From NCBI GenBank assembly GCA_024275415.1, contig JAJRZD010000063.1:1-32000 (forward strand): DNA of 32,000 nucleotides, written 5' to 3'. The stretch is from an archaeon (lineage in GTDB: Archaea > Asgardarchaeota > Thorarchaeia > Thorarchaeales > Thorarchaeaceae). A model generated the notes under the pieces. That model saw nothing but the letters and a program-made list of their open reading frames with translations. It made no database searches and was not told the DNA's origin. This document shows, piece after piece, positions 6,897 through 32,000 of this stretch. The translations under genes and the position numbers were made by a program. The stretch's first letter is position 1. The number at the start of each line of letters is the position of its first letter.

Positions 6897-7032
6897 TATT
6901 CTCTCTATCTCCTTTCCGAGTCGATTCGGATGAATATCGAGCGATACTAGATAATAAAAGCATTGCGTTGTCAGTGATGACATGAATCATACACCTAGCA
7001 GTCCATTATCTAATAGCAAAAATATAGTATCA

Positions 7033-7063
7033 AAAAAGGAGAAATAAGGCGAGAAACCTCGCC
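7033..7063 (-). terminator. Hairpin GGCGAG-N4-CTCGCC plus U-rich tract after the first OppC gene
   Basis: 6-bp stem at 7048-7063, followed on the minus strand by TTATTTCTCCTTTTTT. Confidence 0.6.
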
Positions 7064-7075
7064 AAATTCGTTTCA

Positions 7076-8656: not shown

Positions 8657-8784
8657 TAGAAATTTTTCTAAACCAACGCATAGTCGAGTAGATTGCCAAA
8701 ATTCATTTGCTTTATCAAAGTTCCTAACGATGAATATTGTAATTCTGGCTCGTAATTCACGAAAACAAAGAACAAAACGATTTT

Positions 8785-8812
8785 AAAAAATAGGGGGACG
8801 CCCGTAAGGGCG
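8785..8812 (-). terminator. Hairpin CGCCC-N4-GGGCG plus U-tract after the OppB gene
   Basis: Stem at 8799-8812, followed on the minus strand by TCCCCCTATTTTTT. Confidence 0.55.
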
Positions 8813-8832
8813 ACCATAGTTCTCGAAAGCGG

Positions 8833-9882: not shown

Positions 9883-10010
9883 TTGTCGAACTCTCCATTC
9901 GAGTACCTAGCGACACTAAGTACTGTAAGACAGTTCAGCATTTTGCCTTGCTACATATAAGGATAATGCTTCGGGTAGGCTAGTCGTTTTCCCGGAAAAA
10001 AAGTTGGTTA

Positions 10011-10047
10011 AAAGAAGAAAGGAGAAACGTGCCCCAAAAATGGGGCA
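10011..10047 (-). terminator. Hairpin TGCCCCA-N4-TGGGGCA plus U-rich tract after the second OppC gene
   Basis: 7-bp stem at 10030-10047, followed on the minus strand by TTTCTCCTTTCTTCTTTT. Confidence 0.6.
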
Positions 10048-10065
10048 GTCATCTCCAATGGTAAA

Positions 10066-11637: not shown

Positions 11638-11873
11638 GATAAGGCCTCCGTGTTCATGAACGACCATTGATTGTAACTTGTTTCCTGTCGCTCATATCAC
11701 TGATTCTTCTTGTGTTCACCTCAAGTTTCCACTAAAAAAAGTGTCTGTCAAGGCGGAAGTGCCGAAAAAACGCAGGATTCATGGTAGGCAAAGAAGGTTG
11801 TGCGAACTTGCCATGCGATTTTCTAATGTTTTGACGATTTACTATTGATACAAAGATCAGACTCAACGATCCC

Positions 11874-12218
11874 TCAACCCGAAGAAGACTCTGTTGAGTC
11901 GGTTTCGAGTGTATCGATGAAGGGATCAAACTCAGTGTCCTCGGTTCGCCCCTCCTCACCAAGTTCCTGCATACGCTTTTCTCGAGCTTTGATGATGTCC
12001 TTTGTTCGTTTTGAGGCAGCCCATAGATCTGCAAAGACCATGCCTACAAGAAACACTGTGAGGACTCCGGCTAGCGCGATGATTGAGCCAATAAAACGAA
12101 GGGACTCATGCAATAACCCAAGGCCCCATCCGCCAAATACCATGGCTGGAGGAATAAGTAGTATTCGCTTGCGGGGTTCCTTTCGTGTTTCAGGAAAAGA
12201 CCTTACTTTCAAAGCCAT
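11874..12218 (-). CDS. Small two-TM membrane protein with a basic/acidic cytoplasmic tail
   Basis: Two hydrophobic helices, then RTKDIIKAREKRMQE and an acidic C-terminus; lies inside the Opp locus. Confidence 0.7.
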   Translation of the reverse strand: MALKVRSFPETRKEPRKRILLIPPAMVFGGWGLGLLHESLRFIGSIIALAGVLTVFLVGMVFADLWAASKRTKDIIKAREKRMQELGEEGRTEDTEFDPFIDTLETDSTESSSG

Positions 12219-12527
12219 CTCAGTTCAATGCTTGTTCAACTGTCTTCCTTTTTACTATTTTCGAACTAGGCGGATTGCATAGCTCGTACAACAAGTACAT
12301 CATGCTGTCTAGTTTACAAAGGCATGCCAGATCGTATCGGAAATAGCACTATTATGTAAATTGCTTGTTCTGAGACACTTAAATCCGGTGCAAATAGTTT
12401 CCGGTAGCTTAGAGTACAAAATGTTGCGTGCTTGTGCAGAAACGTATTTAAGATGCACAACGACAGCGAAAGCCGAAAGGGGTATGATGGAACCCCATAC
12501 ATTTGTGCTCATTTGGAGTGTACGTCT

Positions 12528-13517
12528 ATGAATCTGCTTGATATACGGAATCTACGGATGTTCTATCAGACACAGAAAGGTCTGGTAAAGGCCGTAGACA
12601 ACGTTTCACTACAGTTGGATGTCGGCGAGTCCATAGGCCTTGCAGGAGAAAGTGGTTGCGGTAAAAGCTCCCTCGCGTATTCAATCATGCAGCTTTTGCC
12701 ACCCGCCGCCAACATCGTCGGTGGAAACATCTACTTCAAGGGACAAGACTTGCTTAGAAAATCCGCCAGAGAAATGCGAGACATTAGATGGAAGAACGTA
12801 GCAATAGTCTTTCAGGGTGCGATGAATGCTCTCAATCCCGTCTTCGAGATTGGAGAGCAGATTGCTGAAGCAATCCTCATGCATGAGAACGTGACTGAAG
12901 AAGAAGCGCTAGACCGTTGTTCCAAGTTGTTCGAGATGGTCGGTTTGGATCCCGGAAGGATTCACAACTATCCTCACGAGTTCTCTGGTGGAATGCGTCA
13001 GCGTGCGATGATTGCCATGGCACTTGCCTGCAACCCAGACTTGGTGATTGCAGACGAACCCACGACAGCGCTTGATGTTACAATCCAAGCTCAAATCCTT
13101 AAACTCATGCAAAAACTTCAGAAAGATCTTGGACTGTCATTGATTTTAATCACTCACGACCTATCAGTGATTGCTGAAACTTGTGATAAGACAGCGATCA
13201 TGTATGCAGGTAGGATAGCCGAGCTTGCGGATGTTGTTTCCGTGTTCAAGGAACCAATCCACCCATATGCGACAGGTCTTGTCGGTGCAATTCCAAGCAT
13301 GGTAAAAGCTGAAAAGATGAAACTGACCTCGATTCCAGGTTCGCCCCCTGATCTTATCGATCCACCTACTGGATGTAGATTCCATCCAAGATGCCCCTAC
13401 GCAGAGGACATATGTTCAAGAGAAGAACCATCGTTCGATGAAATAGATCCAGGTAGATTCGTATCATGTCACTTCCATGAACGGCTACGAGGAGAACTGA
13501 CAGTAGATCTTGAATAG
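12528..13517 (+). CDS. Peptide ABC transporter ATP-binding protein, OppD/DppD family
   Basis: Walker A GESGCGKS, signature FSGGMRQR, Walker B IADEPT, and C-terminal GCRFHPRC...VSCH. Start at MNLLDI follows GGAG. Confidence 0.95.
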
Positions 13518-13530
13518 GAGGTAGAAAAAA

Positions 13531-14589
13531 ATGACAACTGATCAATATAGACTTGAACAGTCCACAGATATTGCGGAAGGAGAACCATTAATTCAAGTGC
13601 GAAACATGCGAAAATGGTTTCCAGTCAACACAGGATTTCTCTCCTCCCTACTGTACAAACAAGAGCTTTTCGTGAAAGCAGTTGATGGCGTAACATTTGA
13701 TGTCATCAAGGGAGAGGTTCTTGTTCTTGCAGGCGAATCCGGATGTGGAAAGACCACAACGGGTAGATGTATATTGAACCTTGAAATCCCCACTGATGGA
13801 AAAGTAGTCTATGCGGGATATGACCTCAGTACACTCGACAGGAATGAGATGAAAGAACTGCGAAAAAGAATGCAAATCACATTTCAGGATCCATACGAGT
13901 CACTGAACCCCAAACAAAGTATCGCGAGCATAGTTGAAGAACCCCTTACTGTACACAAAATACCTCTATCTCCGAGTCAAAGGAGAGAACGCGTTCTTGA
14001 AGCACTTGAAAGTGTTGCATTGACACCAGCGGAGGATTACATCGACAGATATCCACACGAGCTTTCTGGCGGACAGCGACAGAGGATTTCGGTAGCTCGA
14101 GCACTCATCCTTCACCCAGAGTTCATGGTTGCTGATGAGCCTGTTTCGATGCTGGATGTGTCGATTCGTGCAGAAATCCTGAACCTACTTCTTCAACTCA
14201 GAAAAGAGTTAGGGCTGACCTATCTCTTCATCACACATGACCTGGCAGTTGCCACATATATCGCTGATAGAATCGGCATCATGTACCTTGGTAAGATCGT
14301 CGAGATGGGACCGGCTCATGATGTGGCTTTTGACCCACAGCACCCATACACTCGTGCGCTAATCTCAGCTGTACCTTCTGGAGATCCAACTGTGAAACGA
14401 AGGGTGGAGTCACTGAAAGGAGAGCCACCGAGCCCAATCAATGTGCCAACTGGTTGCAGGTTCCATCCACGATGTCCATATGCTCAGGAAATCTGTGTGA
14501 GGGAGATCCCTGAAGATAGAGACATGGGTAACAATCACTATGTGGCATGTCACTTTGCTGGAGAGTTGGGTGACGCGCCCAGTCAGTAA
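13531..14589 (+). CDS. Peptide ABC transporter ATP-binding protein, OppF/DppF family
   Basis: GESGCGKT, LSGGQRQR, VADEPVSMLDVS, and GCRFHPRC...VACH. Confidence 0.95.
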   Translation: MTTDQYRLEQSTDIAEGEPLIQVRNMRKWFPVNTGFLSSLLYKQELFVKAVDGVTFDVIKGEVLVLAGESGCGKTTTGRCILNLEIPTDGKVVYAGYDLSTLDRNEMKELRKRMQITFQDPYESLNPKQSIASIVEEPLTVHKIPLSPSQRRERVLEALESVALTPAEDYIDRYPHELSGGQRQRISVARALILHPEFMVADEPVSMLDVSIRAEILNLLLQLRKELGLTYLFITHDLAVATYIADRIGIMYLGKIVEMGPAHDVAFDPQHPYTRALISAVPSGDPTVKRRVESLKGEPPSPINVPTGCRFHPRCPYAQEICVREIPEDRDMGNNHYVACHFAGELGDAPSQ

Positions 14590-15194: not shown

Positions 15195-15860
15195 ATGAGC
15201 GCAAAGGCACTACGGCAAATAGAAAAACAACTCCACAGAGCGATTTCCCTCCTGATGCATACTCAGGACACCCTATTTCGAATAACGGAATCATTGCGGC
15301 CGACCGAACAAGCGCTCATAAGAAAGGAATTCGAAACAAAGACAGTAGTAGACCGAGGGGAGTCCAAAGTCGTCCTGTGTCTTGAGGAGGAGCTAGCTAG
15401 TTCAAAGGCATTCAAAAAGGCCCTTTCAAAGATTGGGAAGCGGAAGCCCACTCTTGTTAGGATTCCGGAAAAAAGTGATTCCCATCTGACGAATCTGACC
15501 ATCGCAAGAATGATACCCTCTGATGTACTTGCCAGTGAGAACGGATCGGTAGTCATAGCCAACATCCAAAAGGAGAAGATGCTGAAACACCTTGAGGACA
15601 AAAAAGCTGTCATCATTGGGACACGGTATCTTCTTGATGACAAGAGCACTATTGGGAAGCTCTCGGAGTCCTTTGTGGAGAAGAACATGACTGTCTACAC
15701 CGACAACGGACTCAACGGTGGGGGACAATTGACCTATGAACTCGTCAGGACACTTGAGCACAGGCTAAATACCTCTGTGGTAGAGATTACCCTCAGTTGT
15801 TCGGTCGCAGAGAATTCCGGAATGCTTGAGAAAGTTCTACAGAGCCTTCTTTCTCTATAG
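15195..15860 (+). CDS. Hypothetical protein, possibly a degenerate N-formylglutamate amidohydrolase-like fold
   Basis: C-terminal DNGLNGGGQLT...VVEITL loosely recalls the N-x-Y-x-GG-x-IT...E-I segment of that fold. This is weak and pattern-based. The stop abuts the next gene. Confidence 0.55.
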   Translation: MSAKALRQIEKQLHRAISLLMHTQDTLFRITESLRPTEQALIRKEFETKTVVDRGESKVVLCLEEELASSKAFKKALSKIGKRKPTLVRIPEKSDSHLTNLTIARMIPSDVLASENGSVVIANIQKEKMLKHLEDKKAVIIGTRYLLDDKSTIGKLSESFVEKNMTVYTDNGLNGGGQLTYELVRTLEHRLNTSVVEITLSCSVAENSGMLEKVLQSLLSL

Positions 15861-18800
15861 GTGATGCTATTGACTAGTGACTCCTCGATGAAGGAAATGA
15901 ACCTTCCATTTCCTCACGGTATCGAAGTGGAGCTTCAGATCATTAGAAGGGATGGCTCATGGATAAGGGGCGAAGAGATACTGGCTATCTTTGACAGACT
16001 GGTATCAAATGCAATATCACTATTGGACAAGAAAATCAGGAAGTCCTTCGTACCATCAGTCAAAAAGAAGTTTCGACATGCCACACAAACCGAGGAAGGC
16101 GAACGGGGCTCCCGAGTCGTTGCAACATATGAAGACCCCAATGGAGAAATCAAAGAGTTCACATTGGTCGGGCATGATCCTAATGTGACAAGTCTCACAT
16201 GGATCCTTGAGATTGCAACACCACCTTGTACGACTCTGGAAGAACTAGCGTGGTGGGTTCAGACACTCATTGCAATCTCATACGAGTCACTCCCAAAGGA
16301 CGCGAATGCCACATTAATATCTACGGGGCTCAATCCTGCACAGGAGTATTTGAAGAATCTCTCTTTCGGAGAGCACCATCACATTCTTGGGCCAGATACC
16401 TCAGAGAGGGTACGAATAGGAGTATACAATCTGATTCGCAACTTCATCCCACATATCATCGCCCTTACAGTGAACTCGCCATTCGAAAACAAAAGGACGA
16501 CAGACGAAGTGTGGGTCGATGACAAAGGCAAGACACGGGCACCCAAGTGCAAGAGGTCGATCAGACTTTTCAGGAACACGACCCAGCTGGGCCCGATAAA
16601 TGAGTTTGAATTCATCCCCCACTTGAAAGATGCTGATGTTGAGGGTTTTGCACGCCATGTCAATAGAAGCTATGCAAGGATGGTTGACCTCTATCCCTTC
16701 ACTCGCTTGAGCACAATCGAGCTGAGAGTATCTGATACCCAGATCTCAGTTCCTAGGCGAGTCGGTATGGCATTGCTACTACAGGCACTTGCCCTTAAGG
16801 CAAAAAAGATGGTCGAAAATGGCATCGATATCCCAGAAGTGGAGGCTGCGTCGCTGGCATCGAACCGAGAAGCTGCAGTTGAGGCAGGACTCTGGGGGCC
16901 TTTCAGGGTAACAAAGACTGATCCAAAGTCCGAGTTCGCCAAGATATATAATATGAGGGTCAACGACGATGGAACCATTGACGAAAAACGGAAAAATCGT
17001 TTCCTAGGCGATGCAGTGAATTCTATGCTGTTCCTGATACGTGATGAGCTTGAGGAAATTGGCTTCATTGACAATCCGTTCGTGCAGCCGTTGTTGGTGT
17101 CAATCTATGGCAGCGAATTTGTTGCTCCCCGTACGACAGGAGCTGACTTCCAGCTTGATGTATACGCAAAGTCAGACCTGAACCTTGTAGTTCTTCTACG
17201 AAGGCTGACAGAAATAACACGTGAGTGTTGTATCAATTGGCTCTACGACCCACTTGAAGGAACCCCACACCTACCTACATGGTTATGCTGGTGGAAAGGC
17301 GTCGAGCCAGAAATAGTAACTGAGAAAGAGCGAATCTTTGCGGGTCAGAAAGCACATGTGTCAATCTCTATCCGGAACGTCCTTGAAAAAGATTTAGTGG
17401 ATCTGACACTCACCTATACGATTGAGGACGCAGACCGGCATGTCGTGGAACGCAATCTAGTTCCCATCATGAGGATAGAATCGGGTGAGATTTTTGTAGA
17501 ACATATTGAATTCGAAACCTCGAAAGGAGTGCCGGCATACAACATCCTTGCCACGGTAGGGTTGGCGGGGCAAGAGATTCATGTTTCAGGGACAATCCAG
17601 ACCTTTTGGACAAAGGCTACAATCAGACCCACTACGACAACAATCTTCGCTGACGGGGCTACACAGATACCTTTCACGGGTGAGATTGAAACAAGTTTCC
17701 CTGACACGGAATTCTTAGCAGCGAAAGTGAGTGTTGTGTCACCTGGGCGAGAGAAAGTCCTTGCAGAGGTTGAACAGCCACTGTCAGTTGAACCTGGAGG
17801 AGTCATCTCATTCAAGAATGAAGACTTCCCACCCCTAGTGGTGCCTGATGATTTTTCTGAGGGCGTTGAGAGATGCATCCTGAGGATCAGTCTCTCAGAT
17901 TCAGACGGGGAAGAGGTCACTGCGAACACATCTCGACCGTTCTATATCGGGTTTGTGCGAAGGGGACCAAAGATAATATTGGATGCGGACATAAAGGAGT
18001 CGTATAGACCGAGAGAGAAGATAATAGGAAATATCGAGTTGAAAACTAGTGGACAAGCCATAGAAAAAGACGCCACGGCTTCGATCGTGTTCGTTGCGGA
18101 TTCTGGGAGACGACACCCGATTACAACAATTCCGATTGAGGAACTGGCAAAGGGGCCAAAATACTTTGAGTGGACGGTTCCCGCAATTCACTCAGAGAAC
18201 ACCTCAGAACGGACTGGTGTGCTGCGTGTGGACTTGCTCAACGCATCAGAGGTCATAAGCTCGACTCAGTCAAAACGGTTCAAGTTAGAACACATCGGTG
18301 TCAGGATGAGCATCGATTCTCTTCGTATCCCGACCGCCACAGAGATTGGAGGGAAAATCACAGGATGGCTCCGGATACGACGGAACACGGAATCAGGAGA
18401 AAAAGCGATACTCGACTTGATCTTCAAATATCCCGATGGAGCAGAAATCCACGCATTCTCGCAGTCTATAAGACAAAGTCGCAATCTATCGGTGGCATTC
18501 GGACCAATCGAAGTCCCTGAGCCGCCATCCGGTAAGAAGTTTGACCAAGTGGATCTTGAAGCTAGGCTGTCTTATGGAGGATCTGTAATAGATACAAGGA
18601 CTGAAAGTCTAAGGTTAGACGGGAAAGACGAACCGCATATGGTGCGAATATCCTTTTCTGGACTTCCCACTTTCGTTACTCCTGACGAAACACTACATGC
18701 CACCATACATGTCACAAATCTGTCCAGAGAGGAGATGCCATGTATGCTTGCCGTACAGCTCGATACTGTAAAAGGGCCAATTCCTATCTGGCAAAAGGAG

Positions 18801-19316
18801 ATATTGCTCAAGCCAAAAGAAACTGGGCTATATGCTATCAGCATTGATATCCCGTTGTCCTTGGAAATGAGTACAGCATATCTGACTGCAAAAGCCACGA
18901 CCACGAAGGGAGTTACAAGGGGCTCAAAACGCCTTAAGATAAAAGCAGTTGAGGAGGCTCACTTTCATTTCAGCTACATGATCAAGGATTCCAAGGGAGT
19001 GGAGATTCCAGGTCTCGTCCCTAGAGTCACGCCAATCAAACTGATTGTCATTGGAAAGGCAACCACCAAGGCACTAGATGATGTTAAGATTCTTCTCAGG
19101 ATAATGTCCAGAAGGAAGGTCGTCAAACTCTTTGAGATAGACACCAAAGATATCACACGACGACACGATAACGAATTTGAGATAGAAATCCCTTGGACCA
19201 CACCTTCAGTGGATATGGTCACAGGATTCTACATCGAAGTATTGGTCGAACAGGGAGGGCAGATATTACCCGACCGTGCAGTAAAACAAGCACCAAAGCA
19301 ATTCACGGTGTATTGA
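15861..19316 (+). CDS. Glutamate-cysteine ligase family 2 (GCS2/YbdK-like) carboxylate-amine ligase fused to about six C-terminal Ig-like beta-sandwich domains
   Basis: GIEVELQII, ILEIATPPC, GEHHHI, ALTVNSPF and TIELRVSD match GCS2 motifs. From about residue 480 to 1151 there are roughly 110-aa beta-rich units. No signal peptide. Confidence 0.8.
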   Translation: MMLLTSDSSMKEMNLPFPHGIEVELQIIRRDGSWIRGEEILAIFDRLVSNAISLLDKKIRKSFVPSVKKKFRHATQTEEGERGSRVVATYEDPNGEIKEFTLVGHDPNVTSLTWILEIATPPCTTLEELAWWVQTLIAISYESLPKDANATLISTGLNPAQEYLKNLSFGEHHHILGPDTSERVRIGVYNLIRNFIPHIIALTVNSPFENKRTTDEVWVDDKGKTRAPKCKRSIRLFRNTTQLGPINEFEFIPHLKDADVEGFARHVNRSYARMVDLYPFTRLSTIELRVSDTQISVPRRVGMALLLQALALKAKKMVENGIDIPEVEAASLASNREAAVEAGLWGPFRVTKTDPKSEFAKIYNMRVNDDGTIDEKRKNRFLGDAVNSMLFLIRDELEEIGFIDNPFVQPLLVSIYGSEFVAPRTTGADFQLDVYAKSDLNLVVLLRRLTEITRECCINWLYDPLEGTPHLPTWLCWWKGVEPEIVTEKERIFAGQKAHVSISIRNVLEKDLVDLTLTYTIEDADRHVVERNLVPIMRIESGEIFVEHIEFETSKGVPAYNILATVGLAGQEIHVSGTIQTFWTKATIRPTTTTIFADGATQIPFTGEIETSFPDTEFLAAKVSVVSPGREKVLAEVEQPLSVEPGGVISFKNEDFPPLVVPDDFSEGVERCILRISLSDSDGEEVTANTSRPFYIGFVRRGPKIILDADIKESYRPREKIIGNIELKTSGQAIEKDATASIVFVADSGRRHPITTIPIEELAKGPKYFEWTVPAIHSENTSERTGVLRVDLLNASEVISSTQSKRFKLEHIGVRMSIDSLRIPTATEIGGKITGWLRIRRNTESGEKAILDLIFKYPDGAEIHAFSQSIRQSRNLSVAFGPIEVPEPPSGKKFDQVDLEARLSYGGSVIDTRTESLRLDGKDEPHMVRISFSGLPTFVTPDETLHATIHVTNLSREEMPCMLAVQLDTVKGPIPIWQKEILLKPKETGLYAISIDIPLSLEMSTAYLTAKATTTKGVTRGSKRLKIKAVEEAHFHFSYMIKDSKGVEIPGLVPRVTPIKLIVIGKATTKALDDVKILLRIMSRRKVVKLFEIDTKDITRRHDNEFEIEIPWTTPSVDMVTGFYIEVLVEQGGQILPDRAVKQAPKQFTVY

Positions 19317-23031: not shown

Positions 23032-23865
23032 ATGCAGATAGAAGCATTTTGGTTCGGACTTTGGTTCCTTGTCATAGTGTTTGCCATCTTTCTCTTGATG
23101 TTCATCGTAAGTGGCATCAAAGTCCTGAAAGAATGGGAACGCGTTGCAGTCCTGAGACTTGGCAAGTTCAAACATATCAGAGGTCCGGGTATCATTTGGA
23201 TAACCCCGATGTTAGACAAGGTAGCCATGAAAGTATCATTACGGTTGCAGACCTACGCGTTCAAGACAGAAAGGTCTCTTACTAAAGACAACGTGCCTGT
23301 GGTCGTTGATGCTGTTATGTATTTCAGGGTCATCGATGTAGAAAAAGCAATCCTAAGCGTAGAACGTTACAATATCGCTGTGGAACTCGCTGCTCAGACC
23401 ACCCTAAGAGAAACAACAGGGAAGGTAACTTTGGATCAACTGCTCTCTGACCGTGACAGCATCGCCGCTCACCTCCAAGAGCTTATTGATGAAAAGACAG
23501 AGCACTGGGGCGTAAAGGTCACTGCAGTGGAAATCCGTGATGTGGTCATCCCAACACAACTCCAAGATGCAATGAGCAGGGAAGCTCAGGCAGAACGTGA
23601 GCGGCGCGCACGCATCACTCTCGCACAAGCTGAGCTAGAGTCCTCTGAAGCTATGCTCAAAGCAGCTCAACTATACGAACAATCCAGTGTTGGCTTCGTC
23701 CTTCGTACCTGGAACATCATGCAGGAAATTAGTAAGAACGCCAATCTAATAATTATGGTGCCTACAAATATTCCCGAGGTGGGCACAACTGTAGGTACGG
23801 CAGCAGCTCTGTCAGCTGGGACAGGTGGAATGAGGATTCCAAAGAACAAGGGGACAGACGTGTAA
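23032..23865 (+). CDS. SPFH/band 7 stomatin-like protein
   Basis: N-terminal TM, EWERVAVLRLG, TKDNVPVVVDAVMYFRV, AQTTLR, WGVKVTAVEIRDV and QAERERRA. Confidence 0.95.
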   Translation: MQIEAFWFGLWFLVIVFAIFLLMFIVSGIKVLKEWERVAVLRLGKFKHIRGPGIIWITPMLDKVAMKVSLRLQTYAFKTERSLTKDNVPVVVDAVMYFRVIDVEKAILSVERYNIAVELAAQTTLRETTGKVTLDQLLSDRDSIAAHLQELIDEKTEHWGVKVTAVEIRDVVIPTQLQDAMSREAQAERERRARITLAQAELESSEAMLKAAQLYEQSSVGFVLRTWNIMQEISKNANLIIMVPTNIPEVGTTVGTAAALSAGTGGMRIPKNKGTDV

Positions 23866-23899
23866 GAAGAGAATCACGATCTGGTGAGAGGTGAAAGAA

Positions 23900-24601
23900 A
23901 TGGACGCCTGGATAAAGATCCTTGTGGTCATGATATTGATATCGGCCCTGAGCATGGTGTTGGGAGTGCTGATTTTCGACCCATTCTACGGGCTGATATT
24001 GATAGGGATAATCCTGACCCTGCTCGTCTTGACCGTGGATCCCGCGACTGGAAAGGCAATGGCGCAGGTGACGATTCCCATCGTTATCATCCTGTTCGTA
24101 TTCGAGCTCGTGCTCTTTGGAGCTGATCTTGTATTCAACCCATTGATGATCTTCGTTATCGGCGCCGTACTCTACATGCTCTTCTCCATGTTCACTGGCG
24201 GAGGTATTGTAGAAGGTGGATTCATTGATGCGAAGTTGTCACTGAAGCTCTTTCCGATCTATGGTGGTGCTATCATCTTGGCGTGGTTCCTGGATCCTAC
24301 GGGGCATCTGCCCGTGTACATCATGGTTGGTACTGTGTTTGGGCTGATGTTGCTGTATATGGGATTCCTGAGAAACTACGACAAATGGCCGCAGTACCAA
24401 TACGGGAAGATGAACAACCTCTTTGCATTGACTGACATCAACCCCAAGGGGAAAGTCAAGAGCGGAGCAGAGATATGGTGGGCTAAAACGATGGGTCCAC
24501 CAATCATGGCTGGTGAGCGTGTGAGAGTGCTTGGGCTGTCGGGGATGACAATGATAGTCATGAAGGACGAGTCAAGTGAGCTCACACTGGATCAAGCATG
24601 A
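23900..24601 (+). CDS. NfeD-like stomatin operon partner (multi-TM N-terminus plus C-terminal OB-fold, no ClpP-like domain)
   Basis: C-terminal GKVKSGAEIWWA...GERVRVLGLSGMTMIV matches the NfeD OB-fold pattern, and the gene is adjacent to stomatin. ATG at 23900 follows GAGGTGA; alternative GTG at 23891. Confidence 0.8.
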   Translation: MDAWIKILVVMILISALSMVLGVLIFDPFYGLILIGIILTLLVLTVDPATGKAMAQVTIPIVIILFVFELVLFGADLVFNPLMIFVIGAVLYMLFSMFTGGGIVEGGFIDAKLSLKLFPIYGGAIILAWFLDPTGHLPVYIMVGTVFGLMLLYMGFLRNYDKWPQYQYGKMNNLFALTDINPKGKVKSGAEIWWAKTMGPPIMAGERVRVLGLSGMTMIVMKDESSELTLDQA

Positions 24602-24607
24602 TACAGC

Positions 24608-24632
24608 AAAAAGGTAGGGATGTCCTACCTTT
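24608..24632. terminator. Bidirectional hairpin AAAGGTAGG-N5-CCTACCTTT between convergent genes
   Basis: 9-bp stem at 24610-24632, between the NfeD and CPBP stop codons. Confidence 0.6.
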
Positions 24633-25469
24633 CTACTTATTTTTTCGAGCGAACTTGTCAAGCAATAGGTATACGACAGACAATCCAAACAGGAAGCCAG
24701 CAATCGTGGTGATTCCCCATTCTATCTGGAAAATCTCCGGCAGGATAACGGTTTCGCGCGGATAGACAGGGAACAGGATATACGCAAGCATGTTCCACAT
24801 GAAATGGAACCCGATGGGCACCCACAGTTTCTCGCCAGACCAGTAGTAGGAGTACGATAGGACGACAGCCCCAAGAGTTATGTTCAACGTGAAAAGCAGA
24901 ACAAGATGGGGTGGCACCGAGCCCAGTGGCGACCACCAGCTGAAATGGAAAAGTCCAAAGACCAAGGAGCTGATGATGATACCTTTGCCCTTGCCGACGA
25001 TGTTCACGATTCGAGTCGTGAGATAGCCCCTGTAAGCAAGTTCCTCGAAAATGGCAGTAGGCACAGTGATAATGATCTCGTTTACGATGAGATCAGCAGT
25101 GAGTACCTCAGGAGGGTTCAGTTGCCCTCCAAAGGCCAAGGCGAAAATGACAACTAGGATTGCAGCCAAAGAACCAGCAATGGCACCAACGACAAGATTC
25201 GAGAACATGTCCTTGTCATCAAGATCCAATCCGAGCTCGGCAGTTGAAGAACCACCTTCCCATCTCACAAAGAATAGCACTATGAAATAAAGAAGGGCAA
25301 ATGTCAGGAAGAATAGTCCGGTCGCGACAAGGGCATATGATTCTGAACCGTAGAAGGCCCCAGCGATTATTGGGGACATTTCAATGATAAGAAGCATCAG
25401 CCCTGCAAAGAGAGTGACCCTAAGTATCTCAACATCGCGACTGCTCTGACTGTGTTCACGCACTTTCAT
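24633..25469 (-). CDS. CPBP (type II CAAX/Abi) family intramembrane metalloprotease
   Basis: EELAYRGY, FGLFH and HFMWN motifs; multiple TM helices. Confidence 0.92.
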   Translation of the reverse strand: MKVREHSQSSRDVEILRVTLFAGLMLLIIEMSPIIAGAFYGSESYALVATGLFFLTFALLYFIVLFFVRWEGGSSTAELGLDLDDKDMFSNLVVGAIAGSLAAILVVIFALAFGGQLNPPEVLTADLIVNEIIITVPTAIFEELAYRGYLTTRIVNIVGKGKGIIISSLVFGLFHFSWWSPLGSVPPHLVLLFTLNITLGAVVLSYSYYWSGEKLWVPIGFHFMWNMLAYILFPVYPRETVILPEIFQIEWGITTIAGFLFGLSVVYLLLDKFARKNK

Positions 25470-25712
25470 TGTAGGAACCAATGAGCCACAGGACAATACA
25501 TCGTTAAATCTTGTCCTATAGATTCACACGCGATTTGATTATCAGCACACTTTTCGTACATATAAGATATGCCAAGCCACCAGATCAGAGAGAAAAAAAA
25601 GTACATAGAGCCAACTGATTTAAGTACCCGATGTGAATCGGACTGTAACATTCATTCATGCTTTGGCCTGAAAGATAACCTGAAGAAGTGAAAACGATAG
25701 GAGCGTACATTT

Positions 25713-26897
25713 TTGTCAGATACGAGAAGAATGTTACTGGATTTCGAAACCGATGAAGTCGGTCGAAAAGCACGGGACGATCCAAAAGTGCGCAAATCGC
25801 TCATCAAGGCTCTATCGGACACTTCAGATATCGTTAGGCAGCGTGCCCTTATTGCGACTATCGAGCTTGGTGACCCTACAATTGTGAAGGATATTGTCAA
25901 GTCGCTCAAGGACGAAGATGACGAAGTGAGAGTTGCTGCTGCCGAGTCATTGGCATACTACAGGCAGCCATCCACAATACCATATCTGTTAGAAGGGCTG
26001 AAGGACTCTAATACGTGGGTCAGATCCCACTGTGCCAACGGGCTTTCCAAGTTGATTGGCGGGCCAATCTGGGCGCGGTTGAAAGAAGAGGATGTTGACA
26101 CGATACTCGCTGATTTCCCAGAGATGGATGAAGAACAGATAAGACAGTTCATGATTGATCTAAAGGTCAGAGAGAACGAGCTCGATAAATTCATGCATTG
26201 GCGTAGGAAAAACTTCGAGATTGACATAGACCCCTCAATTATAGAAGAGCTAGAAACAAAACCACTGATTCTAGAAGGTGCGGACATCAGTGCGCCTGTG
26301 AAACCCACTTCTGCTTCGGGTATCTCAACAGAAGTAGAGGAAATCCTTGCCGAGCTTCCAGACGACATCAGAAGCACTCTACCAGAAGAGGACTTGCGAC
26401 GATTGACTCCCTCCACTGCGCGAGAGCTAGTGGACTCCTTGCTTGCATCATTCGTCAAGAAAGAAGAAGAAAAGCCAAAGAAGAAGAAAAAAGTAAGAGT
26501 CAAGAAAGTCCAGAGATCCAAGAAGAAAAAGGGCCCCACAAAGGAAGAGATGCTTGAGAAGATTCCTGAAGAGATAAGGACACAGATTCCCCCAGATGTC
26601 CTTGATGACCTGACAGTAGAGGACTTGGAAGCACTCATATCAGCAGATAGTGACGGCGCCAAGTTGCTGCCGGATATCAAAGATGACGAAACAATAGTCA
26701 AACCGTCAAAGCCCAAGAAACACAAGAAGATGGCTGATGCACGGTTCCAGACTCTGACAGACAAGTACGGTGAGGAGAAAGCGGAGATCCTTCTCAGCAT
26801 ACCTGAGGACATGCTAGCCGGAATTCCCGACGACCAGATCGAGGAGATGGACATCGATTCCCTGAGGGATCTTGCAGATGCCCTCGCACCAAGGTGA
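25713..26897 (+). CDS. HEAT-repeat protein with three C-terminal acidic helical repeats separated by Lys-rich linkers
   Basis: Three PBS-lyase-type HEAT repeats (ALSDTSDIVRQRA, LKDEDDEVRVAAA, LKDSNTWVRSHCA), then three EILxxIP(E/D)(E/D)...IP repeats and KKKKK tracts. Confidence 0.85.
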   Translation: MSDTRRMLLDFETDEVGRKARDDPKVRKSLIKALSDTSDIVRQRALIATIELGDPTIVKDIVKSLKDEDDEVRVAAAESLAYYRQPSTIPYLLEGLKDSNTWVRSHCANGLSKLIGGPIWARLKEEDVDTILADFPEMDEEQIRQFMIDLKVRENELDKFMHWRRKNFEIDIDPSIIEELETKPLILEGADISAPVKPTSASGISTEVEEILAELPDDIRSTLPEEDLRRLTPSTARELVDSLLASFVKKEEEKPKKKKKVRVKKVQRSKKKKGPTKEEMLEKIPEEIRTQIPPDVLDDLTVEDLEALISADSDGAKLLPDIKDDETIVKPSKPKKHKKMADARFQTLTDKYGEEKAEILLSIPEDMLAGIPDDQIEEMDIDSLRDLADALAPR

Positions 26898-26903
26898 TTC
26901 TAC

Positions 26904-28208
26904 CTATTCATTTCCCCTGATAACAATGGCAAACTCGCTTGCCAACCTACCATACCATTCGAGCAAATCACGCATGTTATCCACATGACGATAGGTTCCA
27001 TTGCCGTATTGGGCAAGTGCCAACATGAGTTCCTCATCCAGTTCGCTTCGTTCGCCCAACCCTATAGTGTACATCACAAAGCGGTTGCGGTCAGGAAAAC
27101 GCTCTTTCATTATCTTCAAGGGGGGAGGGCCAGCTGTCGTCATTCCATCCGTCAACAGGATAATCATTGTCGGTTTGCTTGGGTCTCCGAATGCCTCAAG
27201 CACATCTGCGGCTTTGGCTAGAGCATTCCCCATATTCGTGAGTGTTCCACCTTCTTCTACCTTATCCACAACATGAGTGCTTATGATTTGAAGCCCTAGA
27301 GCTTTCTCACGTCCCGTACATTCTACAAAGGGCTGGACGTCACCTGTGTCTGCATTCAAGAAAGTCATCTCTTGGACTTCCTTCTCGAATGTGATGACAC
27401 CGACCTTCTCTCCGTACCCTCGTCCTACCTTCTCAGCAAGGTAAAGCAAGACCGCCATTGCTGCAGCCTCGGCCCTGCTTACACTACCGCCTTCATTGAA
27501 CCTATCAAGAAATGCCTGTACTTCAGGGTTGTCACCTGCAAGATCCTTTAGTCCCTCACGAGCATGTGCTATGTCCTGAACAGGAACATCAGTAGTCTTC
27601 ATCGAACCGCTGGTGTCAATGCACAGAATCGCATTGAATGGCGTCGCGATACCGATAGTCTTGAACTGGTAACCGGTTTTTTCTTTCAAAGCCTCGAAAG
27701 CCAGCTTCGCAAAGCTCTTACCTGTAAGATTAGGTCGAGTGTTCATTATCTCTACTTTCACATCCAAGTCGGGCCAGTTGAAGGACATGCTTGGGTATAC
27801 CAGTCGTCCATCAATGAGTTCCTCAAGGGAATCCACCTTCTCTGCCGCTTTTGTGACAAGGTCTTCCGCATTCGCATCTTCAGAGAGAGGTTTGAGACCA
27901 AACTCCACATATTCGAGAGCAATCATATCACGCTCATATAGGGTGACATCTACAATATCACCTTCCATCAAAAGTGATGCTTCCAAAACCAAGGTGTCAA
28001 TGTAAATCTGGTCTTCAGGTACATCATTGCTTTTTCGAATTTCTGCAGCACCCCAGAAACTGCTCTCGGGGTCTTCAAAGACGACGATGGATCCAATCTC
28101 TGCATCCAGTGTTTCAGCGACCTTCGGATTCAAAGTTGCATAACCACGAAGATCCCCACCATCTACAATCTCAAGACTTACCTTCGCGACGATCGTGATT
28201 GCCTCCAT
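26904..28208 (-). CDS. Cdc48/VAT N-domain-like (double-psi barrel plus beta-clam) protein fused to a vWA domain with an intact MIDAS
   Basis: RGYATLNPKVAETLDAEIGSIVVF...IYIDTLVLEASLLMEGDIVDV resembles the CDC48_N pattern. vWA motifs: ILCIDTSGS, GTLT, IILLTDG and YTIGLG. Confidence 0.8.
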   Translation of the reverse strand: MEAITIVAKVSLEIVDGGDLRGYATLNPKVAETLDAEIGSIVVFEDPESSFWGAAEIRKSNDVPEDQIYIDTLVLEASLLMEGDIVDVTLYERDMIALEYVEFGLKPLSEDANAEDLVTKAAEKVDSLEELIDGRLVYPSMSFNWPDLDVKVEIMNTRPNLTGKSFAKLAFEALKEKTGYQFKTIGIATPFNAILCIDTSGSMKTTDVPVQDIAHAREGLKDLAGDNPEVQAFLDRFNEGGSVSRAEAAAMAVLLYLAEKVGRGYGEKVGVITFEKEVQEMTFLNADTGDVQPFVECTGREKALGLQIISTHVVDKVEEGGTLTNMGNALAKAADVLEAFGDPSKPTMIILLTDGMTTAGPPPLKIMKERFPDRNRFVMYTIGLGERSELDEELMLALAQYGNGTYRHVDNMRDLLEWYGRLASEFAIVIRGNE

Positions 28209-28238
28209 TATTCCTTACTTTATTCTGCTCGTTAAGGG

Positions 28239-28245
28239 ATATAAA
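28239..28245 (-). promoter_or_regulatory. Candidate TATA box (TTTATAT) about 30 nt upstream of the Cdc48N-vWA start
   Basis: Lies in the 52-bp gap between the genes; spacing fits a leaderless or short-leader transcript. Confidence 0.45.
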
Positions 28246-28260
28246 CAATGGTACACTGTG

Positions 28261-29766
28261 CTAGCGCCCCAAGAGCTTCGGGATAGAACCTATAAAGGGT
28301 GCCTCTTCCTTTTCATAGTTTGTGTTCTTGGTCAGATGCCTGATGATTTCTTCTCCGATATTGGCAGTTGCATAATATGTTGTTCGTACCGAATCTTTCC
28401 CTCGGGTCCGAATCGATGCAACAGTGAGCACATCGCCAGGATTCTCTCGGATCCATAAATGAGACTCGTACCCTTTGCTCTTGTTTCTCAGTGTCACGAT
28501 GTACGAATCATGGTGAATGCCATTGTACCCGCCATCCCCAACACTTCGAACTCGGGGCCATGTATTCTTGGGAGGGATCATCATATCAACTGACGACAGA
28601 TCCCACTCGCTCTGATGGATGATCTGAACAAGCGCGTCTTCCACTTGTGATCTAAGAGTGCCACTCGTGTTCGGGCATGCCATTTGTTTCGAGAGAGCCT
28701 TGCTCTCAAGGCCAGAATTGAAAGGCTTCTGAACCAATGACAGAGTATTGCCACCAAGAATACGCTGGACATCTGATAGATCCCCAGGAAAATCTCGTGA
28801 AAGAGCTTGCAAGATGAATTCGGCACCCTGGACTGAGAGGAAGCTGTAATCGGTTCCAAAAAGAAGTGTTTCAGACCAGTTTCTCGGTTGTACTCTCTCG
28901 GATGCCATCTCGAAGAGAAGGGGGATATCCTGATCATGTAATGTGGAAGTGTCGGCTGTAAATGCAGGGTCTTTGAGGACATCGTAAAGCTTTGGTGATG
29001 CTGGGCTCATCCCGCAATGTGCCAGAATAACCTTGAGATTGCCAATTGACTCCTGATAACGAGGGTCTTCTCTCATAGTAGTCACTAATTGATGAATTCG
29101 AGTCACGGTCCGTATGTTCCGAGTATCAAACAAGACGGGAATTCGAAGTTCTGCTGCTCGATACACGACCCGCTGAACCATCTCATCCTCTAACTCATCG
29201 ATGAACAGCTGAGCCAGAGGATGTAGTTTGAGACCTCTAAGACCAAGATCTAGGATTGCACGATCTAATTCCCGTACCGCAATATCATCATCACCACGGG
29301 TAGCATCTGTCGGATCCACTCTTGCAAATCCGATCAACCTGCTGGAATGAGGAGCGCGTGTAGTCCAACCAGCAATTTTATCATTCGATATCTTGAAGGA
29401 TGCAGAACCATCAGAGTTCTGCTTGGAATAGTCGTCAGAGTATGGGAATACTATTGTTCTGTCAACAAGCCAGCCATGCTTCATCCTACTCCAACTATCA
29501 CGGCTTGAGAAAATCTTGGCGACGAATGGTGTCGGAATGGCATCCACGGGCTCAAATAGCAGCTCATCCCGTTCGATAGCCCTCTCGGCCAACCGCCTCA
29601 TCTCAAACCAGAGAAGCTGGAAGAACTCGTACGACCCTGTGGGAGTATTCCTGTGAGTCTTCTCACGTCCCATATGATGATGTGCATCAACAAGATAGAG
29701 ATGAAACAGGTCATCTTTCTTGATGGATTGTTCAGGGATGTCTTCAATAGCTCGTATCACGAGCAT
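28261..29766 (-). CDS. Amidohydrolase-superfamily TIM-barrel metalloenzyme (Amidohydro_2-like) with an extra C-terminal alpha/beta domain
   Basis: VDAHHH, GFARVDP, GLRGLKLHP, ILAHCG, DTS and LLFGTDY motifs, plus QRILGGN. Confidence 0.88.
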   Translation of the reverse strand: MLVIRAIEDIPEQSIKKDDLFHLYLVDAHHHMGREKTHRNTPTGSYEFFQLLWFEMRRLAERAIERDELLFEPVDAIPTPFVAKIFSSRDSWSRMKHGWLVDRTIVFPYSDDYSKQNSDGSASFKISNDKIAGWTTRAPHSSRLIGFARVDPTDATRGDDDIAVRELDRAILDLGLRGLKLHPLAQLFIDELEDEMVQRVVYRAAELRIPVLFDTRNIRTVTRIHQLVTTMREDPRYQESIGNLKVILAHCGMSPASPKLYDVLKDPAFTADTSTLHDQDIPLLFEMASERVQPRNWSETLLFGTDYSFLSVQGAEFILQALSRDFPGDLSDVQRILGGNTLSLVQKPFNSGLESKALSKQMACPNTSGTLRSQVEDALVQIIHQSEWDLSSVDMMIPPKNTWPRVRSVGDGGYNGIHHDSYIVTLRNKSKGYESHLWIRENPGDVLTVASIRTRGKDSVRTTYYATANIGEEIIRHLTKNTNYEKEEAPFIGSIPKLLGR

Positions 29767-29905
29767 AGGTCGTCAGCACCTCGTGGGAGAAGAGATAGCG
29801 GTGCAAGTGATAAACTATTGCATATCTTTAGATGGATGAGATACACTTTAGACATAAAACGTTTCATTCCAACTGAAGAGCGTAGAGTAGAGGAAGATAG
29901 AAGAA

Positions 29906-32000
29906 ATGTTAGTTGTTGAGGACAGGGACACGAACGAGGTAACAAGGTTCTTCGTGATTGACGCATATGCGAAACTAGGCTCCATCCAGATTGGAACAGA
30001 TATTCAGGTCTTCGATCCTCAACGCTTACTGAGATATTATGCACTTTTAGAAAATCAACTATTCGACTTCGCAGCACGATATTCTGAGGCTTTCAAGTAT
30101 CTCCCGAGAAGAGCATATTCATACCTATCTAAACCCCCGCTTCTTAGTGATATAACTGCAAGCCTAGCATCATCGGGAAATGATTTCTGGACAGTGGATC
30201 AATTCGTCATTCACCCGTTGACTGAGATCTCTTCAAAACCCCTTCCACGATACCAACAAAAGAACAATGTAGAATCATGTGTTAGATGGTCGACCCAGAC
30301 AGGTGTCGCTCCGAGATTGTACAATGTTTCAGATCTAGATGTGGATAGTAGCAGGTACAATTGGGCGGTGTCGATAGATGCATCGGCCCTCTCGAAGACT
30401 ATGAAAAGGTCTTTGAGCAACGAACTGCTAAAGGCAATAAACCATAGTCAGCCTATCTATATCCGAATCGAGAGAAAGGAAGAAATAGCGCGCCTCCTTG
30501 AATGGCTTGTTGTCCTCAAGGACGCTGGAATGCCTAGTCCTACGATATTCCTTGCAGTGACCGAGCATAGAGGATGGGAAAACGAGCTGCTGAAACTTCT
30601 CCAGATGAAGGGGGTTCATCTGCTTTTGTCTGGGGCGACCATAGGCTCATTATCAACCCTCATCAACAGATTGAAAGATTCGGAAAGAACCGATGAGTGG
30701 TCAAAGAAATTCATGTATGCTAGCTCATATCCTGAAACCCAGAAAGGCGACAGTCTTACAGAGATTCTCAGCTTCTTTATGAGCAGGAATCTTGATGCCT
30801 CACGCATAGAGATCCAAAGGGTTCTTGGGGGTAACATGATACAGGCATTAGCACCAATAAATGACCGCCTTACTTTTGAGCCCAGTAAGTCGTCAGTGGC
30901 TGCGGAAGGTGTGTTTGGGAAACCAGCATTTCTTGAGCTGCTTCGTCTGTTCAGATTGCTGTCCACACAGAAACAGCTTGAGATACTATCTGCGGAGATG
31001 GTGACTGATAATCAGGGAGGGCACGTTAAACTGGGCTCAATCATACTTTCGATCAGAGCATCTAAACAGAACAAGTTTCGGAAAGTCCTCATCCAACAGG
31101 AACGAGACGAATCATTGAGAGTGATTGGATGGCAAAAGCCTTTCAACGTTGCCTATCAAACAAGGGATTGGGTAACGCTACAAACCCAAGCCCGGGCATC
31201 AGTGAAAGGGCCAGTCCTAGATTCACCAAGCCATGTTGGTACATTCAATAGGATGCTCCTTGACATCTTGGGAATACGGGACTCTGTGGGCGTATTGTCA
31301 TCATTACATTATGGTATTGAAGAAACTGGGATGAAGGCTGGCTATATCGGTCTTTGCACGGAGGATGCCAAAGCAATAGGTGTGAAAGAAGGAAATCTTG
31401 TCACAGTCTTGGATGCAGATTCGAATCACCTTTGGGGTGCAATTGTACAGACCAGTCGTGGTTGCCCTTCCAAAAGAGTGGGGGTATCAAGAAACGACCT
31501 GAAGTGTTATGGCATGGACGCGTCCTCACAGGTAGACATTGTCAAATACGTAGACACATTATCCGAATGCGACAGAGTTTTGCTTACCTATAGGAGAACA
31601 TTAGGCTTTACCAACTCAGAGCTTGCTGCATTCCTGCACATGACAAGCGATGAAATCATCGAGTCGGTGACCAGCCGGATAATAGGATTGGGAACTCGCT
31701 TCGTGACTGCTAAAGGTTTAGAATTAGAGGTGCGGAGAACAGCACCGCCAATAAGAAAAGGAGAGCTTAGCAAGGCAAACAATGCAGCAATAGAGATACA
31801 GCCAATAGAATTCCTAAATGAATTGAACGTGATCCTTGTGCTGGGCAACGGCAATGATATGTTGGTACGTGATGTAAAGATAACAACCCCAGAGGTGATC
31901 CGGAAATCACTTGACACATTCTCAAAAGAAATCCCTGAGATTGGCGCCTTTTTGAGTTCCATGGGAAAAATCGAGCATAGATGGAGTATCTCAGCCATAT
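29906..32000 (+). CDS. Edge-truncated fusion protein (at least 698 aa): inactive amidohydrolase-like domain, Cdc48-N-like domain, and start of a MIDAS-less vWA domain
   Basis: Manual translation shows an open frame from ATG 29906 to the window end, absent from the ORF track because it has no stop in the window. It aligns colinearly with the 28261-29766 and 26904-28208 proteins. Confidence 0.85.
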   Translation, partial: MLVVEDRDTNEVTRFFVIDAYAKLGSIQIGTDIQVFDPQRLLRYYALLENQLFDFAARYSEAFKYLPRRAYSYLSKPPLLSDITASLASSGNDFWTVDQFVIHPLTEISSKPLPRYQQKNNVESCVRWSTQTGVAPRLYNVSDLDVDSSRYNWAVSIDASALSKTMKRSLSNELLKAINHSQPIYIRIERKEEIARLLEWLVVLKDAGMPSPTIFLAVTEHRGWENELLKLLQMKGVHLLLSGATIGSLSTLINRLKDSERTDEWSKKFMYASSYPETQKGDSLTEILSFFMSRNLDASRIEIQRVLGGNMIQALAPINDRLTFEPSKSSVAAEGVFGKPAFLELLRLFRLLSTQKQLEILSAEMVTDNQGGHVKLGSIILSIRASKQNKFRKVLIQQERDESLRVIGWQKPFNVAYQTRDWVTLQTQARASVKGPVLDSPSHVGTFNRMLLDILGIRDSVGVLSSLHYGIEETGMKAGYIGLCTEDAKAIGVKEGNLVTVLDADSNHLWGAIVQTSRGCPSKRVGVSRNDLKCYGMDASSQVDIVKYVDTLSECDRVLLTYRRTLGFTNSELAAFLHMTSDEIIESVTSRIIGLGTRFVTAKGLELEVRRTAPPIRKGELSKANNAAIEIQPIEFLNELNVILVLGNGNDMLVRDVKITTPEVIRKSLDTFSKEIPEIGAFLSSMGKIEHRWSISAI

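Follow-up and report, generated by a model that had tools for sequence, protein, structure and literature searches.

A fused copy of an amidohydrolase and a Cdc48N-vWA protein, with neither of their sites, beside a candidate three-gene module of Asgard archaea

Why should an archaeal genome keep intact a protein that copies two of its neighbors in one polypeptide and has lost the metal sites of both? The question arises toward the end of a 32-kb stretch of Thorarchaeal DNA (the window), which opens a 45-kb contig (C42) in a 3.5-Mb genome that is 93% complete; homologues of its proteins carry the name of Thorarchaeota, an Asgard lineage. An amidohydrolase (AH) and a protein joining a Cdc48-type N-domain to a vWA domain (Cdc48N-vWA, hereafter the vWA protein) are encoded here opposite a long fusion protein (FUS). 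A HEAT-repeat protein (HEAT) adjoins them, and the window also encodes a probable carboxylate-amine ligase (LIG). The locus is read here as the Thorarchaeal form of an Asgard-wide three-gene module, in which LIG, AH, and the vWA protein would act as maker, remover, and binder, with FUS as a non-catalytic paralogue. The structural and evolutionary statements in this reading are held with high confidence, and the mechanism is tentative and, as drawn, rather doubtful; because it combines the two, the reading as a whole falls a little short of an even chance. The genes concerned are the following, with positions counted in the window.

15195..15860, + strand: 221-aa protein (P0272), family not assigned; its stop abuts the LIG start.
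15861..19316, + strand: LIG, 1151 aa (P0271); a probable YbdK/GCS2-type carboxylate-amine ligase domain (~1-480) followed by ~670 beta-rich residues.
25713..26897, + strand: HEAT, 394 aa, TTG start; Pfam HEAT_2 at E = 9.8e-29, C-terminal half long, charged, and repetitive.
26904..28208, - strand: the vWA protein, 434 aa (P0002); an N-domain made of a double-psi barrel and a beta-clam, then a vWA domain.
28261..29766, - strand: AH, 501 aa (P0001); a TIM-barrel metallohydrolase of the Amidohydro_2 family, extended at its C-terminus by an alpha/beta domain of ~150 aa.
29767..29905, no strand: the divergent spacer of 139 bp between AH and FUS; a conserved motif, GATAAACTATTGC, at 29809-29821 and a TATA-like CATAAAA at ~29853-29859.
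29906..32000 and on to contig position 32524, + strand: FUS, 872 aa (P0005), frame intact; a dead AH-like part, a Cdc48N-like part, and a vWA domain without its metal site.

The positions of HEAT, the vWA protein, AH, and the divergent open reading frame (ORF) were confirmed in the window sequence as a preliminary description of the locus had them, and the divergent ORF, which that description had proposed to finish beyond the window, was completed by extension into the full contig.

The same description held that FUS contains homologues of AH and the vWA protein, in the same order, in one polypeptide. Pairwise BLASTP is marginal on this point (E = 0.002 for AH and 1e-4 for the vWA protein) and too weak to decide it; thus, orthologues of all three proteins were gathered from 19 related genomes and compared as profiles, which proved decisive. 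The hhalign comparison of the FUS and AH profiles gives a probability of 99.5 (E = 4.1e-23) over 400 columns, with FUS 1-407 corresponding to AH 1-450, and the match takes in the extra C-terminal domain of AH. Against the vWA-protein profile, the probability is 99.6 (E = 2e-24) over 378 columns, with FUS 458-834 corresponding to residues 1-391. The short peptide pairs by which the homology was originally recognized are all present and are paired with each other in these alignments. FUS thereby divides into an AH-like barrel (~1-320), an AH-type C-terminal domain (~320-457), a Cdc48N-like domain (~469-633), and a vWA domain (~634-872), although Pfam and NCBIfam scans of the protein return no match. 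Its AlphaFold2 model (predicted local distance difference test, pLDDT, 88.7; predicted template-modeling score, pTM, 0.74) agrees with the fused-copy reading: the N-terminal half adopts a TIM-barrel amidohydrolase fold, and a Cdc48/p97-type N-domain precedes the vWA fold.

The standalone neighbors harbor the sites against which FUS is to be compared. AH exceeds the gathering cut-off of Pfam Amidohydro_2 (PF04909), 26.4 bits, with a score of 40.8 (E = 3e-10). Searched by profile, 1.84 billion representative proteins yielded only 148 relatives, comprising ~25 fusion clusters, ~60 standalone Cdc48N-vWA clusters, and ~30 standalone AH clusters. AH residues D27, H29, H31, H182, H250, and D306 are invariant both in 16 orthologues and in the ~30 distant standalone clusters. 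The vWA protein, modeled with a pLDDT of 91.4, has a vWA fold, matches the vWA family in Pfam, and harbors an intact metal-ion-dependent adhesion site (MIDAS), D198-x-S200-x-S202 with T324 and D354; these five residues are present in essentially all ~60 standalone clusters.

The Cdc48-N assignment proposed for the first part of the vWA protein is correct and rests on Pfam, family-profile, and fold matches. Pfam CDC48_N (PF02359) is matched by 22 of the 56 family members (best E = 3.8e-7), the window protein itself not being one of them. The family profile matches the N-domains of TER94 and Cdc48 in the PDB with E values of 2e-4 to 1e-3 (1.9e-4 for TER94), and Foldseek comparison with isolated p97 N-domains gives template-modeling (TM) scores of 0.6-0.73 (0.67-0.73 for the vWA-protein model). 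The N-domain is followed by a vWA domain and not by AAA+ rings, and no AAA match was found in the vWA protein with Pfam. Two of the 56 members carry a ubiquitin-like domain recognized by Pfam. In family f9, which we take to be of the Lokiarchaeia type, the Cdc48N-vWA protein has an N-terminal extension of ~300 aa (locus L054, 3595-5769); a Pfam scan of the N-terminal extensions of the 590-960-aa Loki-type homologues detected no domain. An Atlas search with the vWA protein, with vWA families masked, returned no usable match.

With these sites as reference, the description of FUS as a dead copy stands: the AH ligands and the MIDAS are gone in every fusion examined and retained in the standalone copies. 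D306 and H250 are absent in all 15+ fusion clusters, the D306 position being occupied by A, S, G, N, T, or L. The HxH motif is replaced (DAYAKLG) in 19/19 Thorarchaeal fusions, and a distant fusion (P0153) retains HIH without H250 and D306. The DxSxS..T..D residues of the MIDAS are gone from every fusion, and the adjoining M203 and D207 are widely retained. The reading frame nonetheless runs unbroken for 854-907 aa in over 20 genomes with 20-56% identity, and the invariant residues of FUS cluster at 265-310. Since intact frames of ~870 aa persist in so many genomes, FUS is, as judged from its sequence, under selection and not decaying.

The fusion is old. In trees of each half, the standalone active copies form one clade (SH-aLRT 99), and all 15 sampled fusions, drawn from Thorarchaeota, the sister family f2, f19, and metagenomic clusters, fall on the other side with supports of 86 (vWA half) and 99 (AH half). 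The inner grouping of the fusions is identical in both half-trees, which fits one old duplication and fusion that has since evolved as a unit. The suggestion of an old inverted duplication followed by fusion thus holds as to age. Subject to the caveat of long-branch attraction, a recent local inverted duplication is rejected on the same trees, because the fusions branch outside the whole standalone clade in both halves.

The trees also bear on a further explanation, that the locus is an antiviral defense or conflict system in which the dead copy serves as a decoy. Both vWA domains and inactive paralogues are known from some conflict systems. However, PADLOC finds no defense family here, only a generic HEAT repeat; the genes are single-copy and vertically inherited, and the AH and vWA-protein trees are congruent, with the same groupings. 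The vWA protein is the most conserved gene of the locus, with 78-94% identity within the family, unlike fast-evolving and patchy defense genes. A defense role is therefore disfavored and regarded as highly improbable.

If FUS is maintained, what does it do? The preliminary description made it the scaffold subunit of a hetero-oligomer composed of the active AH, a vWA adaptor, the pseudoenzyme, and possibly HEAT. The arrangement in which HEAT is transcribed forward, the vWA protein and AH in reverse, and FUS forward again recurs in 15/19 related loci, and residues 265-310, the most conserved region between AH and FUS, could be an oligomer interface. However, three genomes that are 95-98% complete (G010, G016, and G021) encode an intact FUS beside HEAT, and neither AH nor the vWA protein was found in them; LIG was not found in two of the three. 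FUS also lies apart from its presumed partners elsewhere, 17 kb from the AH-vWA-HEAT block in G013 and 13 kb from the AH/vWA pair in f19. The four-gene neighborhood is thus frequent, yet FUS and HEAT also occur away from AH and the vWA protein. An obligate scaffold is contradicted by the persistence of FUS where AH and the vWA protein are not found, so FUS is not merely a scaffold for its neighbors, and the hetero-oligomer is considered unlikely.

HEAT fares no better as a partner. Three genomes of genus g12, all 96-99% complete, encode it with 55-57% identity, and FUS, AH, the vWA protein, and LIG were not found in them. In 15 related loci its gene converges on the vWA gene, and in G013 it travels with AH and the vWA protein, but because HEAT occurs without the rest of the module, its adjacency looks like conserved local gene order and not partnership. 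Its membership of the system is doubtful. A 298-aa antisense ORF inside the HEAT gene (25958-26854, - strand) probably arises only because the opposite strand codes for a charged, repetitive sequence.

The proposal that AH and the vWA protein work together is argued by the gene fusion itself, their trees show matching groupings, and complex prediction lends weak support to a contact between them. The predicted complex scores an ipSAE of 0.56, the best of three controls scoring 0.00; 70% or more of the contacts recur between runs, and the pLDDT of the partner is 77 or higher. The mark applied to such scores is passed by 58/80 solved complexes and by 2/110 mismatched pairs, with 7 of the 80 solved complexes and both passing mismatches lying in the passing range at or below 0.60, where this score also falls. 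Since no similar complex has been solved, the score does not reflect memory of a known structure. This contact counts in favor of the hetero-oligomer as well.

Common control of AH and FUS may also be encoded between them. In an alignment of the divergent spacer from five orthologues, ATAAA..ATTG is invariant, the flanks are variable, and GATAAACTATTGC is retained in all five. The motif may be a promoter or operator element common to both genes.

The gene that gives the locus a wider meaning is LIG. In the neighborhoods of standalone genes in other Asgard families, a gene with a weak GCS2 signature lies repeatedly beside AH, and LIG is the only homologue of these AH-adjacent ligase genes in the genome (E = 6e-83 and 3e-80; 37% identity), the homology lying within the N-terminal 480 of its 1151 residues. 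The LIG profile matches, plainly though at a distance, 1tt4 (E = 1.1e-9) and Escherichia coli YbdK, 1r8g (E = 2.7e-9). Against TIGR02050 (YbdK), LIG obtains E = 1.5e-12 at 47.5 bits versus a cut-off of 176; with Pfam GCS2 it scores 18.3 bits and four homologues 20.1-24.8 bits, three of them reaching the 21-bit cut-off. The ~670-aa beta-rich part probably consists of Ig-like repeats; in the ligase of f28, which is split, the equivalent part has a weak match to TRAPPC13_C (Ig-like).

In each of the 17 Thorarchaeal genomes where the fast-evolving 221-aa protein was found (families f1 and f2; 21-60% identity), its gene immediately precedes that of the ligase. The protein has no match in a Pfam scan, and this conserved gene pairing suggests that it may be part of the module. 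A genome of the same genus (G004) has two such pairs, on contigs C6 and C84, with 71% and 52% identity to the query.

The distribution of the three genes was followed in 251 genomes of the phylum, representing 28 families. AH, the vWA protein, and LIG share the same 10/28 families, as listed here by the number of genomes in which each was found.

f1: AH 51/59, vWA protein 51/59, LIG 51/59.
f9: AH 51/54, vWA protein 52/54, LIG 50/54.
f22: AH 10/16, vWA protein 11/16, LIG 12/16.
f7: AH 5/5, vWA protein 5/5, LIG 5/5.
f19: AH 6/6, vWA protein 6/6, LIG 6/6.
f27: AH 5/5, vWA protein 5/5, LIG 5/5.
f24: AH 2/5, vWA protein 2/5, LIG 2/5.
f2, f6, and f28, each: AH 1/1, vWA protein 1/1, LIG 1/1.

In the other 18 families, the vWA protein and LIG were not found, and AH gave only weak matches, which are probably more distant amidohydrolases. 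Losses are shared as well: seven genomes of the Thorarchaeal family f1 (G016, G017, G019, G021, G059, G114, and G180) are without AH, the vWA protein, and LIG, and in an eighth (G010), AH and the vWA protein were not found and LIG is represented only by a divergent 708-aa form. These counts are given as a pattern, with no statistical test attached, because related genomes are not independent samples.

In most lineages the genes are also linked or adjacent, in several orders. In f6, f7, and f19, AH and the vWA gene are followed by a convergent LIG; f22 has AH, LIG, and the vWA gene in a single operon; f28 has the same order with LIG split in two; and f9, f24, and f27 pair LIG with AH, LIG coming first. 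In Thorarchaeota, LIG lies 4.5-11 kb from the AH/vWA genes on the same contig. Genomes of f7 and f19 contain two complete paralogous AH/vWA/LIG sets each (on contig C2 of G030, at 255714-262286 and 344688-351336; on contigs C150 and C148 of G088), evidence that the whole module was duplicated together; f7 has in addition a third, lone Cdc48N-vWA gene. Linkage in several different gene orders is hard to explain through ancestry alone.

What the module may do is drawn as follows. AH and LIG look catalytically competent by prediction, the MIDAS of the vWA protein looks functional, and FUS is without either site. LIG would make an amide bond of the gamma-glutamyl or isopeptide type on a target, and AH would remove it. 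The Cdc48N-vWA protein would bind AH and select the target, gripping an acidic group of it through the MIDAS metal and a peptide or beta-grasp partner through the Cdc48-N domain. FUS would most likely bind similar targets or partners without catalysis, serving as a regulator, protector, decoy, or scaffold. Since FUS outlives AH and the vWA protein in some genomes, it can act without the enzymes. A protein or peptide target is favored over a free metabolite because of the Cdc48-N domain, the beta-rich repeats of LIG, and the ubiquitin-like domains in two family members.

Several points weigh against this reading. The scheme of maker, remover, and binder is drawn only from gene linkage and the classes of the enzymes. 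Small molecules are the usual substrates of YbdK-family ligases and of Amidohydro_2 enzymes. The predicted contact between AH and the vWA protein is weak support, and in f9 the LIG-AH pair and the vWA gene are 9-105 kb apart. Because the genomes are kin, their matching distributions suggest more independent events than there were. As the fusion branches are long, long-branch attraction may have affected their placement in the trees.

The usual role of these enzyme classes leads to a serious rival, in which the locus serves small-molecule metabolism: LIG would make a gamma-glutamyl-type or other amide metabolite and AH would open or degrade it, with the vWA protein as a maturation or metal-delivery factor for AH and FUS as a decaying or regulatory remnant. 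Besides the enzyme classes themselves, the well-known vWA-MIDAS partners of metalloenzymes would accord with such a role. So would the genes directly upstream of the 221-aa/LIG pair, at 5067-14589, which form a full oligopeptide/dipeptide ABC transporter set of one SBP_bac_5 protein, three permeases, and two ATPases with oligo_HPY tails; in the other lineages examined, however, the transporter is not linked to the module. Known vWA maturation systems use a MoxR-type AAA+ ATPase. The preliminary description had proposed that an AAA+ ATPase might be found downstream of FUS, yet the window, the 13 kb downstream, and eight loci from other families contain no AAA+ ATPase gene, MoxR-type or other. 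The Cdc48-N domain and the ~670-aa beta-rich repeats of LIG are protein-binding features, the ubiquitin-like domains in two family members point the same way, and FUS, intact in all those genomes, does not behave as a decaying remnant. A metabolic role is thus rated fairly unlikely.

The best match of the vWA protein outside its own family leads to a comparison with eukaryotic nutrient sensing. In Foldseek searches of the PDB with the vWA-protein model, the top ten matches are all DEPDC5 or yeast Sea1/Iml1, of the GATOR1/SEACIT complexes (E = 3e-13 to 3e-10, ~430 columns), and these rank ahead of p97 N-D1. DEPDC5/Iml1 of animals, fungi, and Dictyostelium also fills 25 of the 26 highest places among Swiss-Prot models, with query residues 1-386 corresponding to DEPDC5 5-371 (E ~1e-13). 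Among 2.3 million AFDB fold clusters, ranks 1 and 2 belong to the protein's own family (the 724-aa A0A5B9D9Q0, TM 0.78, and an 848-aa fusion), and DEPDC5/Iml1 makes up most of ranks 3-18. The accession A0A5B9D9Q0 suggests an origin in the cultured Lokiarchaeon strain MK-D1.

Both proteins have a Cdc48/NSF-type N-domain (NTD) followed by a vWA or Sec23-trunk-like domain (SABA) within ~380 residues. A review likens the NTD of DEPDC5 to the Sec18/NSF N-domain and SABA to Sec23, and describes this domain make-up as unique to the protein (PMC8534245). The likeness has limits: over the whole module, the TM score is only 0.35-0.40 with a root-mean-square deviation of ~10 Å, and the SHEN, DEP, and C-terminal domains of DEPDC5 are absent from the vWA protein, which ends after its vWA domain. 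PF12257 (IML1) has no match in the genome at E values up to 1 and none among the 56 family members. The vWA protein is thus built like the front half of DEPDC5 and is not a member of that family; from the modeled folds, common descent is possible.

From this likeness follows another explanation, that the locus is a forerunner of GATOR1, with the vWA protein and FUS as scaffolds for longin and Roadblock proteins that regulate a Rag-type GTPase. A genomic survey reported NPRL2-like proteins for most Thorarchaeota genomes and no counterpart of DEPDC5 (10.1101/2020.10.19.343400), and the genome studied here has at least 12 Roadblock genes. However, the partners differ, those of the vWA protein being a ligase and an amidohydrolase and those of DEPDC5 being longin proteins; DEPDC5 has neither enzyme as a partner. 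No longin or Roadblock gene (including Robl_LC7 matches) was found on contig C42, and none of the lineages examined links a longin, Roadblock, or GTPase gene to the module. Pfam NPR2, like IML1, gives nothing significant in the genome. The SABA of DEPDC5, like FUS, is not described as metal-binding, in contrast to the standalone vWA protein with its perfect MIDAS, and an intact site together with enzyme partners points to a different job. A GATOR1 forerunner is for these reasons quite unlikely.

A broader proposal joins this likeness to the three-gene module: an Asgard Cdc48N-vWA protein, working in a reversible amide-tagging system with FUS as regulator, would be the prokaryotic source of the NTD-SABA half of DEPDC5/Iml1. 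This is a speculation, and probably not correct. If it were true, the Cdc48N-vWA protein would be a new eukaryotic signature protein, and FUS, having lost its MIDAS, would show the type of degeneration that leads to SABA. An Asgard protein with a DEPDC5-like front half offers an origin, open to test, for one part of GATOR1, the nutrient-sensing complex, and experiments would be possible if A0A5B9D9Q0 is indeed, as presumed, from a cultured strain. A linked maker and breaker of amides with a metal-site binder could, moreover, be a new system of reversible modification in the nearest kin of eukaryotes. The locus is also a natural case of an enzyme and an adaptor that were copied, fused, inactivated at both sites, and long retained even after loss of the enzyme.

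The remaining neighbors are of less certain bearing. Between LIG and the HEAT gene (23032-25496) lie a Band_7/SPFH gene, an NfeD gene, and a gene for an Rce1-like CAAX protease. The gene for the distant fusion P0153 (locus L042, 8001-10670) likewise adjoins a Band_7 gene, together with one for an AN1-zinc-finger/M50 protease, which may be coincidence.

Downstream of FUS, contig positions 32775-35437 (L002, 7775-10437) encode first a 413-aa protein, whose W-rich N-domain is joined to a coiled coil at the C-terminal end, and then a 416-aa vWA protein; in some relatives, an extra diverged Cdc48N-vWA paralogue lies between the two. These genes may belong to the Thorarchaeal system, because they are missing from the locus in the three genomes in which AH and the vWA protein were not found. 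For the coiled-coil protein (32775-34016), a PDB profile search gave only coiled-coil matches, a Pfam scan of 11 orthologues only coiled-coil families, and the ESM Atlas no usable match. Next comes a small E2F/DP-type winged-helix protein (35799-36362; L002, 10799-11362; Pfam E2F_TDP, E = 2e-9), which has a eukaryote-like DNA-binding domain and keeps this position in nearly all related loci. A 446-aa P-loop protein (36645-37985; L002, 11645-12985) with a weak CobW match is read as COG2403-like and is 80-89% identical across the family, far above its neighbors. The P-loop gene and a PaaK/F390-synthetase-like gene downstream were considered as AAA+ partners and rejected, as both look like ordinary neighbors.

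How does the three-gene module with its fusion compare with known systems? The N-domains of Cdc48/p97/VAT and Ufd1 have the same fold of double-psi barrel and beta-clam as the vWA protein, which differs from Cdc48/p97 in having no AAA+ rings and a vWA domain in the place of D1. Other MIDAS vWA proteins, namely ITIH, TFIIH p44/Ssl1, Rpn10, BatB, and archaeal ArnB, have neither a Cdc48-N domain nor AH and LIG as partners. Compared with Amidohydro_2/COG3618 proteins such as 4do7 from Burkholderia multivorans and 3cjp, AH has its extra C-terminal domain of ~150 aa, and its sequence is remote from every solved member, its best E value in the PDB being 0.11. YbdK proteins, which the N-domain of LIG resembles at a distance, are single domains of ~370 aa, and LIG carries ~670 further residues. 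The logic of reversible tagging, an amide ligase paired with a hydrolase, is found by analogy in PafA/Dop pupylation; there the likeness stops, since AH has an unrelated fold and no gene for a Pup-like or ubiquitin-like tag was recognized as linked to the module. No published description of the module was found in papers, NCBIfam, or PADLOC. Its single domains are familiar; the combination for which no account was found is that of a ligase, an amidohydrolase, and a Cdc48N-vWA protein in at least ten Asgard families, together with an old, fused double pseudoenzyme.

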